This document shows positions 8,679-15,121 of a stretch of 64,000 nucleotides of DNA, piece by piece. The DNA lies in contig CAXXOA010000002.1 of assembly GCA_963666275.2 (NCBI GenBank), positions 352,001 to 416,000 of the forward strand. Direction: 5' to 3'. This DNA is from Oceanispirochaeta sp. Its GTDB lineage: Bacteria > Spirochaetota > Spirochaetia > DSM-2461. Within the stretch, counting starts at the first letter, position 1; every line of letters begins with the position of its first letter. Under the pieces are notes generated by a model that did no database searches, was not told the DNA's origin, and was given only the letters and a program-made list of their open reading frames with translations. The position numbers were made by a program, and so were the translations under genes.

Positions 8679-9974
8679 CTACCTCAGCTCCATATGGTTG
8701 AGATAGTCTGCTCTTGTAATGATCCCCAGCAGAGAGGACCCATTGGTGACAGGGATATGTCCTACATTGTATTTAAGAAAAAACCTTTCCAGGTCTTTGA
8801 CACCGTCATCCTTGCTGCAGGAGTGAACTTTTCTTGTCATATAGGATTTAACAGGAGCATTCATCTGATCGGAACGGCGGGCCTTACTAATATCCCGTAG
8901 AGTCAGAAACCCGCAGACTTCATCCTTTTCCGTGAGAACCGGAGCTCCCGTATGACCGACTTTCTCCAGAAAGAGGGACGCCTCCAGAACAGTCCAGTGA
9001 TCCCGGACACTCAGCACATCGGCTGTCATCAGATCTTCGGCTTTGATGGCAGGGCGGAGGGATTCTTTCAGACTTGATATAAACTTTTCATAGATATCCT
9101 CTCCCCACTGGCCTTTCAGCTGAGCCGAAGCCGCCCGAGTGTGCCCGCCTCCCCCGAAAGGAGAGAGAATTTCGCTGACATTAATGGATTCTTTCTGACT
9201 CCTGGCGATGATAAGGGTTTTTCTGGCTTTCTGAAGCCCGAAAAGGATAAAAATGGCATCGGCGTTTTCCACTTCAAAAACTTTTTCCACAATCGGAGCC
9301 AGACCACTGACCTGCTCTTTCATTTCAAAATAGCTGAGAATGATCGAATGACCGTGAATCTTCTTGTATACCAGCCTGTTGACCACCTGATGGAACAGGG
9401 AAATCTGATACTCCTGCTTCAGAGGTTTCAGGAACTGGCTCACAAGCTTCATATTGGCCCCCTGGGAGATCAGCCAGGAAGAGGCTTCAAAATCCTCTTT
9501 CACGACATTTTCATGAGTGAAATTCCCTGTATCCGCAAAGATACCTGTCAGACCGATGGTGGCATCCACAGGATCGATCTGCCCCCCCCTCTCTTTTATG
9601 GTCAGCGCCACAAGAGTGGTATTCGACCCGTAGGAGGCGGAGACAAGATTCGCTCCGGGGATATCGGATGTATCATTGATATGATGATCGTAAATTGTAA
9701 AAGCCCCGCTGTACTGGGGAAAAAAATCCAGATACTCCCTTATCCTGGCCCGTGACCTTGTATCAAAGATGATGAACTCGCTGACATCCTGATCCTTCAG
9801 ATCCCGTGAAGAGGTAAAATTCAGGTGATTTTTATAGAGATTGTACAAAGACTGGGCTACAGGATGCACAAGACGGCTTTTGACGATCAGAGCATCCGGA
9901 TAAAGATACTTACCAAGGGCGAGGGACCCGAAACAGTCCAGGTCCATATTTGTATGACCAATAAGCACTTTCAT
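8679..9974 (-). CDS. DHH/DHHA1 phosphoesterase with C-terminal CBS pair
   Basis: HTNMDLDC, YDHH, DTGNF, GGGGHTRAAS, two CBS repeats. Confidence 0.88.
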   Translation of the reverse strand: MKVLIGHTNMDLDCFGSLALGKYLYPDALIVKSRLVHPVAQSLYNLYKNHLNFTSSRDLKDQDVSEFIIFDTRSRARIREYLDFFPQYSGAFTIYDHHINDTSDIPGANLVSASYGSNTTLVALTIKERGGQIDPVDATIGLTGIFADTGNFTHENVVKEDFEASSWLISQGANMKLVSQFLKPLKQEYQISLFHQVVNRLVYKKIHGHSIILSYFEMKEQVSGLAPIVEKVFEVENADAIFILFGLQKARKTLIIARSQKESINVSEILSPFGGGGHTRAASAQLKGQWGEDIYEKFISSLKESLRPAIKAEDLMTADVLSVRDHWTVLEASLFLEKVGHTGAPVLTEKDEVCGFLTLRDISKARRSDQMNAPVKSYMTRKVHSCSKDDGVKDLERFFLKYNVGHIPVTNGSSLLGIITRADYLNHMELR

Positions 9975-12222: not shown

Positions 12223-13740
12223 TTATTCCGCTAACGTGATCGCTTTCCAGACTTTATTGTCGAAAAAGGCATCCACTTCCAAGGGCGGAAGATCTTCCCC
12301 TCTCATTTTCATGATAATTGATTTAGCCTTCTCAAAATCCAGAGCACTCCGGTAGGGACGGTCTGTTGTGAGAGCATCCCAGACATCACAGACCGACAGG
12401 ATTCTGGCAATCCGGGGAATACTGTCTTTTTCAAGTCCCTCGGGATATCCCTTACCGTTGAATTTCTCATGATGGTAGTACGCAGCCAGGATCACCTGAT
12501 CAAGATTGAGAAGACCGTCGAGGATTTCAATCCCCTGAACAGGGTGTTTTTTCATGACCCTGTACTCATCATCATTCAGAGGCCCATCCTTGTGAAGGAC
12601 ATCCTCGGGTACACCTATCTTTCCTATATCGTGAAGCTCTCCAGCCAGAAAGACAATTTCCTGCTCTTTTTTCTTCATTCCCAGCGCGGCAGCCAGGGCT
12701 TTCCCGTAAACTGCCACATGGACAGAGTGCTCCCTTGTGTAGGAGTCCCGTTCATCAAGAGCTCTGGCAAGAGTTTTCAGCACACCGGAAAATTCAAGAT
12801 TGTATTTTCTGATAACCCAGCTGATAAAGAGATTCATAAATGACATGGCGGCAAAGAATATCAGGGAGATATAGAGAGACTGCCTGTGAACCTGCCTTAC
12901 CGGCTCCGAATTGTCCACAAAAAAGAGGGCGCTCCCGGACTCCTCCATAAGGATTTCATCCTGTCTGATTTCTGAGATTCTCTCTTCTCTGTTTATATAG
13001 GTTGTATCTTCCATCTGAAAATAGAGAAGATCCTCATGTTCCTGAATAAATAGTCTGATTTTCTCCGGCCCGGGAGATGTGGCGGCCAGAACCTGGGCCT
13101 GAATGAAATCCGGAGAAACGGGAACTGTCTGCAGAATGCCCAGTCCGGAAATCATTATGTAGAGGAAAAGAAAGCTAATCATGGTACCATAGGAAATGAT
13201 TGTCTCAATTTTTTCCCAGATCTGAACCCTCTCCTTTCCCGTGAGCCTTTTGACAATACTCTGAGTCATCAGGCGGTCACCCCGATCCGTCGAAGCCCCT
13301 GTAAAAACGGCAATGAGAGCGGAAAGATGATCCGAAAGGAAGACCCTCAGGATCCTCATCATCCTTCCCAGCCGGGACACCAGGCGGATAAGGCGCATCA
13401 GCCTCATGGGAATGAGGGGAAACAGGGTATCCATATGAAGAAACAGGCCGTTTACAAACCAGTTCATATCCAGAAGCATTGTCAGATTGGCTGCAAGGAA
13501 AACCCAGAAGGTGAGCCTTTTATACCAGTCCCGATAGGCGATGGCGGTCAGAATCAGCTCCGACATGAGGAACAGAAAAGCCAGGGACATAAGAATTTCA
13601 AGTACCGGATCCGATGCAGGACTCAACCAGCCCTTGATGATATCTGTGAGGAAAACTGAGACAAGGACAAAAATGATAAGGATAGAACGGTATAGAGAAG
13701 AATCGAGAATTTTACGGCAAAAAAGAGAGACTCTCTTCAT
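12223..13740 (-). CDS. HD-GYP phosphodiesterase with N-terminal ion-transport/voltage-sensor-like membrane domain
   Basis: ERDSYTREHS, HDIGK, HHEKFNGKGYP, DVWDALTTDRPYR; about six hydrophobic segments including RLMRLIRLVSRLGRMMRILR. Confidence 0.85.
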   Translation of the reverse strand: MKRVSLFCRKILDSSLYRSILIIFVLVSVFLTDIIKGWLSPASDPVLEILMSLAFLFLMSELILTAIAYRDWYKRLTFWVFLAANLTMLLDMNWFVNGLFLHMDTLFPLIPMRLMRLIRLVSRLGRMMRILRVFLSDHLSALIAVFTGASTDRGDRLMTQSIVKRLTGKERVQIWEKIETIISYGTMISFLFLYIMISGLGILQTVPVSPDFIQAQVLAATSPGPEKIRLFIQEHEDLLYFQMEDTTYINREERISEIRQDEILMEESGSALFFVDNSEPVRQVHRQSLYISLIFFAAMSFMNLFISWVIRKYNLEFSGVLKTLARALDERDSYTREHSVHVAVYGKALAAALGMKKKEQEIVFLAGELHDIGKIGVPEDVLHKDGPLNDDEYRVMKKHPVQGIEILDGLLNLDQVILAAYYHHEKFNGKGYPEGLEKDSIPRIARILSVCDVWDALTTDRPYRSALDFEKAKSIIMKMRGEDLPPLEVDAFFDNKVWKAITLAE

Positions 13741-13876
13741 GATTTATAATTCTTGCTTCCCGCCAAATAGCTGTCAAGTGAAAATAAATCTTGAAATAAA
13801 CAGATAATTAAGAAATAATCTTTTCTATGGATGACTCAGACCCTTTTTTATACCTTTTATCTCGGAAAAATAGCAG

Positions 13877-15121
13877 ATGACCTTTGAAATTCTCCTGTTA
13901 TTTCTCCTTTTCTCCCTTTCAGCAATTTTTTCAGCAACAGAAACTGCCTTTACCTCACTATCAACTCTTCAGATCCACAATATCATGGAAAAAGGCGGGA
14001 GAAGAGGCAGGGAAGTAAACAAACTGGCACGAAAGCCGGATGTCCTTCTCACCACGCTCCTTATCGGGAACAACCTGGCGAACATAGGTGCCACAGCCCT
14101 TGTCACCTCTCTGACGATCCGTCTTTTCGGCTCACAGACAGTGGCGGTAATGACGGGCCTGCTGACCCTGTTTGTTCTTATCTTCGGAGAAGTCACTCCC
14201 AAACAGATTGCTCTGGCAAAAAATGAAGCCATCTGTCTCAACATGGCCTATCCAATTTACTGGCTCTCCACAGTATTCCGCCCTTTCATCTGGATCATTT
14301 CCACGATCAGCTCTGTCATAACCAGGCTCTTTTCAGGAAAGGAACAGAAAACCCTGACCATTGAAAACCTCCTGCAGATGGTGAGGATCGGTGAAAACAT
14401 TGGTATCGTAGAAACCTATGAAAAAGAGATGGTGCAGAATGTTTTCAGGATAAACAATACTCCCGTCAAAGGGATCACCACCTACAGAACCAATGTTTTC
14501 TGCCTGGATAAGGAATCCTATATTGAAGATGTTCTGGATGAAATCATGGATCACGGATTTTCGAGGATACCCGTTTACGAGGAAAATTCCGAGCACATAG
14601 TTGGGATCGTCCTTATGCATGACATAATGAGAGCCATTTCCTCTGGAGAAAAAGCCTTCAAACTGAAAGAAAAAATGGTGGAACCTCTCTTCATACCCGA
14701 AACAAGGATGGTCCACGACCTGTTCCTCTACTTTAAAAAAGAAAAACTAAATATGGCTGTCGTCCTGGATGAATACGGGGGATTAACCGGTATTGTTACA
14801 AAGGAAGATGTCATAGAGGAAATCTTCGGCGAACTCTACGATGAGAATGAAGAGAAAGAGGCGGACAAGATCATTTCCCGGGGAGTCCGGGAGTGGCTGA
14901 TACAGGGTGACAGCTCCTTCTATCTGATTCAGGACAAGCTTGGCATCAACCTGGAGCACGATCAGAGAACCCTCACAGTAGGAGGTTACCTGATTGAAAA
15001 GCTCGGAGAAATACCTGAAGAGGGTACCACATTGAAAATGCCCGAAGGGACCTATGTGATAGGAAAGGTCAGTCAGAACAGAATTGAAGAAGTGGTATTC
15101 CGTCAGTCAGAAGAGAGTTAG
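13877..15121 (+). CDS. Hemolysin/CNNM family protein (DUF21-CBS-CorC)
   Basis: FSATETAF, LIGNNLANI, FGEVTPK, FSRIPV, DEYGG...EDVIEEIFGE. Confidence 0.92.
   Translation: MTFEILLLFLLFSLSAIFSATETAFTSLSTLQIHNIMEKGGRRGREVNKLARKPDVLLTTLLIGNNLANIGATALVTSLTIRLFGSQTVAVMTGLLTLFVLIFGEVTPKQIALAKNEAICLNMAYPIYWLSTVFRPFIWIISTISSVITRLFSGKEQKTLTIENLLQMVRIGENIGIVETYEKEMVQNVFRINNTPVKGITTYRTNVFCLDKESYIEDVLDEIMDHGFSRIPVYEENSEHIVGIVLMHDIMRAISSGEKAFKLKEKMVEPLFIPETRMVHDLFLYFKKEKLNMAVVLDEYGGLTGIVTKEDVIEEIFGELYDENEEKEADKIISRGVREWLIQGDSSFYLIQDKLGINLEHDQRTLTVGGYLIEKLGEIPEEGTTLKMPEGTYVIGKVSQNRIEEVVFRQSEES

Follow-up and report, generated by a model that had tools for sequence, protein, structure and literature searches.

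Weber et al. reportedly described, in 2004, a set of protozoan 'ion channel/enzyme' class III adenylyl cyclases that includes AC1-4 of Paramecium and AC-alpha of Plasmodium. Pore-less sensors on enzymes are known both from such cyclases and from the voltage-sensing phosphatases (VSPs), and HD-GYP phosphodiesterases with membrane sensors are also known. According to the available sections of a 2025 review, voltage-linked dual-function cyclases seem to be confined to protozoans (PMC12414865). Channels, the sperm exchanger and phosphatases are the bearers of voltage sensors named in another review, whose available text does not contain the word 'cyclase' (PMC13095418). In the open-access literature we found no description of a voltage-sensor domain (VSD) combined with HD-GYP, nor of the cyclase-type module in bacteria. 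None of the open-access matches listed linked a voltage-sensing domain with c-di-GMP, and the literature match for a voltage-gated or voltage-sensing cyclase or phosphodiesterase concerned mammalian cyclases only. The main text of Galperin and Chou (bioRxiv 10.1101/2021.11.05.467447), as distinct from its tables and supplements, contains none of the terms 'voltage', 'channel' and 'Ion_trans'. Both the joining of a VSD module to HD-GYP and the presence of that module in bacteria are apparently undescribed.

Such a combination is encoded on the minus strand of the window (the whole stretch of 64,000 nucleotides analysed here) by an open reading frame for a 505-residue protein, P0001 (Table 1). 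In common with the protozoan cyclases, P0001 displays S1-S4, TM5, an external domain with R259 and E262, and TM6, together with an S4 register containing a four-residue step and a glycine. It differs from them in its bacterial host and in its output, which is an HD-GYP domain with no class III cyclase domain, and it is predicted to degrade a messenger whereas the cyclases make one; its family also lacks the G[FY]G after TM6, the S3 Asp and two inner S4 charges. Like Ci-VSP/TPTE, it joins a pore-less VSD to a cytoplasmic enzyme, but the membrane part of a VSP is limited to four helices and its enzyme follows S4 directly, while in P0001 two more helices and the external domain lie between, and the enzyme is a metal-dependent HD-GYP, unlike the voltage-sensing phosphatase. 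With known HD-GYP phosphodiesterases (PmGH, 4mcw; PA4781, 4r8z; the MASE9-12 types) it shares the catalytic and substrate residues and the preceding helix, departing from them in its use of a VSD module as the N-terminal sensor and in a Tyr at the position of PmGH E185. When set against a six-helix voltage-gated channel (Ion_trans), P0001 is without pore helix and filter and has a four-stranded alpha/beta domain instead.

Table 1. Features of the P0001 gene and its upstream region (window coordinates; residue numbers refer to P0001).
Feature	Residues	Position	Strand	Remarks
Whole gene: VSD - TM5 - external domain - TM6 - coupling helix - HD-GYP		12223..13740	-	505 aa
Sigma70-type promoter candidate, TTGACA, 17 nt, AAGAAT		13749..13777	-	ends 8 nt before ATG
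S1	15-38	13627..13698	-	D33 and W38 each 19/19
S2	45-68	13537..13608	-	E48 16/19, E61 19/19
S3	76-100	13441..13515	-	W79 and D/E91 19/19
S4 ladder	R113-R132	13345..13404	-	R119, R123, R126, R129 invariant
S4-TM5 linker, two helices, cytoplasmic	134-178	13207..13341	-	mean identity 21.8%, low model confidence
TM5	179-203	13132..13206	-	begins at E179, 19/19
External (periplasmic) alpha/beta domain	204-285	12886..13131	-	acidic, 16 D/E vs 7 K/R
TM6	286-312	12805..12885	-	hydropathy and models
Coupling helix, TM6 to enzyme	313-331	12748..12804	-	family's most conserved segment, 66.2% mean identity
HD-GYP phosphodiesterase domain	332-495	12256..12747	-	Pfam, phmmer, PmGH mapping, structure

A search of 1.84 billion representative sequences with a profile built from residues 1-315 gave 178 matches at E<=0.001, and we used the best 150 of the 178. 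The alignment of the core family comprises 19 sequences, leaving aside the fragments P0007, P0019 and P0030 and the near-copy P0155. An HD-GYP domain is the output in all 16 non-fragmentary members, the other three being fragments or truncated. The survey of output domains that an earlier note on this DNA had suggested returns HD-GYP only for the core family (16/16), and cyclase, PDEase_I, RGS and GAF domains for distant relatives. Profile A4 gave no scoring match among 7,999 candidates for longer fusions (570-2000 aa), which is weak evidence for their absence. Invariant across the 19 are D33, W38, E61, W72, W79, R119, R123, R126, R129 and E179. Mean identity is highest, at 66.2%, in the helix that follows TM6, and stands at 60.8% for HD-GYP and 56.7% for S4; the other membrane helices lie at 34-45%, the external domain at 22.4% and the linker at 21.8%. 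Of 38 genomes of the taxonomic family (own genome included) 3 were found to carry the gene, all of one genus, as do 2/10 other genomes of that genus. It occurs in 4/401 genomes of the class and in 1/401 of an even draw of the phylum, the own genome being counted in both. The architecture of P0001 is thus real and conserved, and its family is rare. The fourth occurrence in the class is a 46-residue S2-S3 remnant from another family (L036:1501-1638; G596:C111:23302-23439), squeezed among unrelated genes as a decayed copy. At one related locus, that of a distant member, the neighbours are of bacterial type by eye.

The earlier note had listed an arginine ladder, a set of acidic residues and three enzyme motifs, and had pointed to the absence of a TVGYG filter. 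R113, R116, R119, R123, R126, R129 and R132 are indeed encoded at nt 13404-13345, D33, E48, E61 and D91 are in place, and HDIGK, HHEKFNGKGYP and DRPYR begin at residues 370, 423 and 460, with FWVF at 78. Neither TVGYG nor GYG is present in P0001, and a filter-like motif is absent from 18/18 core modules. Each of the 19 family members displays 6-7 basic residues in S4, and the arginines, whose conservation the note had wished to see checked, are kept. The S4 charges are matched by the counter-charges D33 (19/19), E48 (16/19) and D/E91 (19/19), for which an outer position is inferred from the topology, and by the inner S2 acidic residue E61 in all 19. Hydropathy peaks are consistent with S1, S2, a weaker S3 and S4, TM5 and TM6. 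Of the 13,281 frames that run from stop to stop in the genome and have a length of 100 aa or more, 11 contain a five-rung S4-like pattern. A strongly hydrophobic helix (Kyte-Doolittle >2) lies upstream of it in only 3 of these 11, namely P0001, a K+ channel that has TVGYG, and another sensor protein without a pore. Because the pattern and upstream helix are so rare together, the ladder of P0001 is more than a chance occurrence. Pfam and NCBIfam detect HD-type families only in P0001, with no match in residues 1-315; Pfam Ion_trans gives no match at E<=1, and matches 2/9 other family members, both below cut-off.

The sensor departs from the canonical form on its inner side. The caution in the earlier note about the S3 Asp proves real and family-wide: at position 81 the canonical inner Asp is replaced in 19/19 members, by Phe or Tyr in 15, whereas it is kept in 52/53 protist relatives and in 26/26 enzyme-less sensors of spirochaetes. 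With this residue absent throughout (0/19), we do not file the P0001 family as a canonical VSD. At position 58 of S2, in the charge-transfer centre, Phe is present in 13/19 members and Leu in P0001 and its 5 closest relatives. An aromatic residue occupies position 58 or 81 in 18/19, and Phe55 and Phe81 may serve as substitutes for the S2 aromatic. The protist S4 continues further inward, with R/K at position 135 in 48/53 and at position 138 in 43/53, and these two innermost basic rungs are absent from the P0001 family; the register between the two groups has just two anchors, G125 and the four-residue step. The S3 Asp and the two inner S4 rungs look like a matched loss, and we infer re-tuning of the sensor rather than decay.

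An AlphaFold2 model of P0001 was generated from a 14-row alignment (mean pLDDT 73.6). The pLDDT is about 75-92 in S1-S3 and near 70 in S4, and is low in the S3-S4 loop and the linker. In a wide structural search, the best match of modelled residues 1-133 is the sensor of Ci-VSP (4g7v; Z 12.3, rmsd 2.9 A, 129 of 136 residues aligned at 13% identity), a score within the range of up to Z 13 that helical bundles can reach with this tool, and the weight of the VSD assignment therefore rests on the consistency of the rows and on the sequence evidence. Nav1.7, CatSper, Cav2.2 and Kv2.1 follow with Z about 11. Of the best 50 rows, 33 are chains that bear a VSD, aligned over residues about 1-140, and the other 17 fall on the HD domain. 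In a Foldseek search with the full model, HD-GYP proteins alone appeared at E<=0.001 and channels at E 0.04 and weaker; HD-GYP proteins were likewise the only notable matches in a PDB sequence search, and the ESM Atlas gave no usable match for P0001. Residues 1-133 are predicted to adopt the four-helix VSD fold, which bears out the proposal of a voltage-sensor-like domain at the level of a model. The Arg-rich segment models as part of this fold, and neither of the contrary findings anticipated in the earlier note, a cytoplasmic amphipathic helix in place of a VSD or unconserved arginines, was encountered.

Loop charges agree with a topology in which the N-terminus is inside, the domain between TM5 and TM6 outside and the enzyme inside. 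The S4-TM5 linker is long and variable, unlike a tight mechanical coupler. At position 179, where TM5 begins, Glu is invariant in the family while 50/53 protist relatives have Ser, Thr or Ala; on this comparison, E179 appears to be a gain of the P0001 family. The six-helix layout with two helices flanking an 85-residue loop, as first proposed, holds for the helices but not for the loop, which is predicted to be a folded alpha/beta domain. Residues 180-315, modelled alone on 43 rows (pLDDT 93), comprise TM5, TM6 and, between them, an external domain in which four strands are combined with three short helices, and this model argues against an S5-S6 pore. No Foldseek match was found for the external domain in the 180-315 model at E<=0.001, and the wide structural search returned helical hairpins only (best Z 8.6). 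That the domain is Cache-like is a guess which these searches neither support nor contradict. R259 and E262 are present in 18/18 core modules and in 49 and 47 of 53 protist relatives respectively, and their retention from bacteria to protists fits a ligand site. One family member, P0160, has lost the whole external domain in frame with S4, TM5, TM6 and HD-GYP intact; it is a single metagenomic sequence, and represents either a natural deletion or an assembly artefact.

Pfam assigns HD_5 alone to P0001 (residues 323-482), and the closest solved relative of the enzyme part is PmGH (4mcw; phmmer E 1e-36). The HD-GYP residues present are D332, H338, H370, D371, K374, H399, H423, H424, G431-Y432-P433, D452, D455, R461 and R464. 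We mapped these by reading the phmmer alignment alongside the description of PmGH (available sections of PMC4159591): seven of the eight metal ligands of PmGH are kept, as are the equivalents of D183, K225 and D308, the GYP motif and RxYR. The metal ligands H338, H370, D371, H399, H423, H424 and D452 are present in 16/16 non-fragmentary members, K374 in 15/16 and the other mapped catalytic and substrate residues in 16/16, in agreement with the proposal of an intact HD-GYP domain. Tyr334 replaces PmGH E185 in all 16, which places the enzyme in the binuclear rather than the trinuclear (E/D-T-G) HD-GYP subfamily. R461 and R464 of the guanine-recognition motif RxY[K/R] are likewise found in 16/16, and this motif marks c-di-GMP rather than cGAMP according to the text of Galperin and Chou. 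RxYR in P0001 therefore favours c-di-GMP as substrate; of the two candidates originally put forward, cGAMP is disfavoured. With its active site apparently intact, P0001 is predicted to hydrolyse c-di-GMP, with pGpG as the likely product. The host genome contains 61 GGDEF matches over cut-off and 22 HD_5 matches, and a c-di-GMP messenger system is therefore present.

The likeness to ciliate and apicomplexan cyclases, pointed out in the earlier note, is recovered by profile comparison: hhalign aligns the family profile with a cyclase of Paramecium sonneborni at a probability of 96.3 (E 1.5e-9 over S1-S4). We scanned 59 of the about 140 distant matches listed with Pfam. Among these 59, 39 match the N-terminal half of Ion_trans, and the outputs comprise 19 class III cyclases, 5 PDEase_I, 4 RGS and 3 GAF domains, with 0 HD_5. 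The named species among 20 distant relatives looked up, Paramecium sonneborni, Pteridomonas danica and Rhodelphis marinus, are eukaryotic. An HMM of core residues 175-312 alone matches 10/137 distant proteins at E<=1e-3 (best 1.3e-11) and 0/13,279 own-genome frames at E<=0.1, in a test that is partly circular because the 137 were chosen by a profile including that region. These profile matches indicate that the six-helix module is homologous to the protist 'ion-channel' adenylyl cyclase module, beyond the sensor part. G[FY]G after TM6, proposed as a possible pore sign for the protozoan cyclases (available text of PMC3283738), is present in 15/20 cyclase-type relatives vs 0/19 family members. 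The scanned relatives in which the module is joined to RGS, GAF or class I phosphodiesterase domains (P0016, P0037, P0038 and P0055; P0018, P0020 and P0103; P0036, P0075, P0085 and P0108) are presumed to be eukaryotic, and suggest that the module is promiscuous in its outputs.

A tree was built from 44 rows (12/18 core, 22/53 distant and 10/26 enzyme-less), without an outside root. In it the core family is a single branch (support 100/100), grouped with the protist modules to the exclusion of the enzyme-less family (98/97), in agreement with FastTree on all 97 rows. The protist rows form one clade in 16% of bootstrap trees, and the AU test does not reject this clade (p 0.264); a long-branch join with P0055 was flagged. 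It is possible that the core family was transferred from a eukaryote. An origin from the host's own enzyme-less VSD protein was also considered, and is disfavoured (hhalign probability 30.9; tree support 98/97).

This enzyme-less protein, the second pore-less VSD protein of the same genome (G000:C1:2580985-2582103, minus strand; about 372 aa), is matched by the module HMM at E 1.4e-6. It shares S1-S4, TM5, a small external domain and TM6 with P0001, and differs in keeping the S3 Asp (26/26 in its family), in lacking an enzyme, in being widespread and in forming a separate, more distant branch; by eye it ends in a HAMP-like tail. Its family is matched in 99/201 genomes of the class, at loci that include L006:5986-7104 and L007-L033, and we found no published description of it. 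The small genomes of one taxonomic family (f20) contain degenerate copies in which few S4 charges are left. Two further pore-less VSD proteins, L027 (G544:C37) and L028 (G013:C1), are divergent, with longer, coiled tails at the C-terminus and only a weak likeness to the enzyme-less family (E 2e-8 and 1e-7). The K+ channel encoded in the same genome as P0001 (G000:C1:1300173-1301009, plus strand) is of the ordinary six-helix kind, with TVGYG as its filter.

Modelling and alignment show a VSD fold, S4 charges with outer counter-charges, six-helix topology, an enzyme placed inside and an intact active site. We propose, tentatively and at a little less than an even chance, that the binuclear HD-GYP c-di-GMP phosphodiesterase is controlled by an S1-S4 voltage sensor which is altered yet functional, the two forming a one-component membrane receptor-enzyme. 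At a strongly negative resting potential S4 would sit inward; a change of potential would move S4, the S4-TM5 linker would pass this on by shifting the TM5/TM6 hairpin, and through the conserved helix that follows TM6 the HD-GYP domains would be re-set, altering the rate of conversion of c-di-GMP to pGpG. The sequence would fit activation on depolarisation as well as on hyperpolarisation. By analogy with PmGH, which dimerises through a helix like that preceding the HD-GYP domain (available sections of PMC4159591), the HD-GYP domains are probably paired, a dimer being assumed. The external domain may contribute a second, chemical input. A fuller version seems to us only slightly less probable: a protist voltage-sensor cyclase module, possibly taken up from a eukaryote, was joined to a bacterial HD-GYP domain, the sensor was re-tuned as the S3 Asp and the inner charges of S4 disappeared, and turnover became S4-gated. 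Voltage gating is favoured by the standing of S4 as the best-kept membrane segment, by the strong conservation of the coupling helix and by P0160, which keeps S4 and HD-GYP without the external domain. Counting against it are the lack of the S3 Asp throughout the family, the change from Phe to Leu in S2 of the P0001 clade, the variable linker and the scarcity of Ion_trans matches. A review describes D316 of Shaker as the partner of the inner K5, and the effects of the inner cluster as charge-independent (available text of PMC7059764). A Paramecium cyclase is reported to respond to hyperpolarisation (PMC12414865, PMC10587447), but in the available sections of two reviews voltage control of cloned protist cyclases is described as not demonstrated (PMC10651576, PMC5746546), the case resting on work with native Paramecium and on knock-downs (these two and PMC10587447).

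The main alternative is a ligand receptor in which TM5, the external domain and TM6 control HD-GYP in the manner of a common two-helix periplasmic sensor and S1-S4 is vestigial, either locked or a tuning scaffold, its arginines kept for folding or lipid contacts. The same losses at S3 and at position 58 speak for such a protein, the external domain folds confidently in the model with R259 and E262 kept across kingdoms, and a layout of TM, periplasmic domain, TM, helix and HD-GYP is common (text of Galperin and Chou). Counter-charge pairs are needed for folding too (available text of PMC7059764). We nevertheless regard this arrangement as rather unlikely, in that S4 is conserved at more than twice the mean identity of the external domain, which is among the lowest in the protein, and P0160 has dispensed with the external domain in frame. 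Voltage-insensitive VSD-like domains, for example those of TRP channels, usually lack most S4 arginines, and the 6-7 residues kept in S4 of 19/19 members are unlike a loss of the TRP type. It is less probable again that the VSD is live but senses an input different from steady voltage, such as a gradient of pH or ions, the lipid state or tension in the membrane, with S4 setting the enzyme. The charge network is conserved yet non-standard, S4 may be saturated at a typical bacterial potential, and protist AC1/AC2 act in a mechanical response (available text of PMC10587447); no sequence feature indicates any particular other input, however, and a helix with so many basic residues in the membrane field would presumably feel voltage too. 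We consider it very improbable that P0001 is a channel-enzyme or proton-conducting VSD, regulated by ion flux through the protein. Homology with the protozoan 'ion channel/enzyme' cyclases and the invariant D33 of S1 would fit such a role, but the filter-like motif and the G[FY]G after TM6 are missing from the family, a soluble alpha/beta domain rather than a pore loop lies between TM5 and TM6, and an unbroken S4 ladder should not leak (available text of PMC10651576). The models indicate that no ions pass through an S5-S6 pore in P0001.

How bacteria convert membrane potential into behaviour is largely open, and a c-di-GMP phosphodiesterase gated by S4 would, if confirmed, provide a direct molecular link. 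For the cloned protozoan enzymes, the available parts of the reviews state that channel or voltage function was never confirmed. A 505-residue bacterial homologue with a simple enzymatic read-out makes both the voltage sensing of the module and the channel question testable in E. coli or liposomes. If voltage gating holds, the same module would serve cyclase, phosphodiesterase, RGS, GAF and HD-GYP outputs, as a general voltage-receptor module and not a K+ channel, and a working P0001 might become a part for voltage-controlled c-di-GMP tools.

The gene itself is unremarkable in GC content (0.47 vs 0.478). No obvious ribosome-binding site was found upstream of the ATG, either in P0001 or at the two orthologous loci (L002, L003), both of which keep TTGACAG and a -10-like box at similar spacing; at all three loci the boxes end about 8 nt before the start codon. 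The short distance from promoter candidate to ATG points to an mRNA that is probably leaderless. The two genomes with the closest orthologues belong to the same genus as that of the window. Two genes downstream lies a stand-alone phosphoesterase-like gene for a DHH-DHHA1-CBS protein (window 8679-9974, minus strand). Head-to-head with the P0001 gene and 136 bp away is a CNNM/CBS/CorC_HlyC gene (window 13877-15121, plus strand), and the same neighbour is found at both orthologous loci, which may be mere synteny within one genus.
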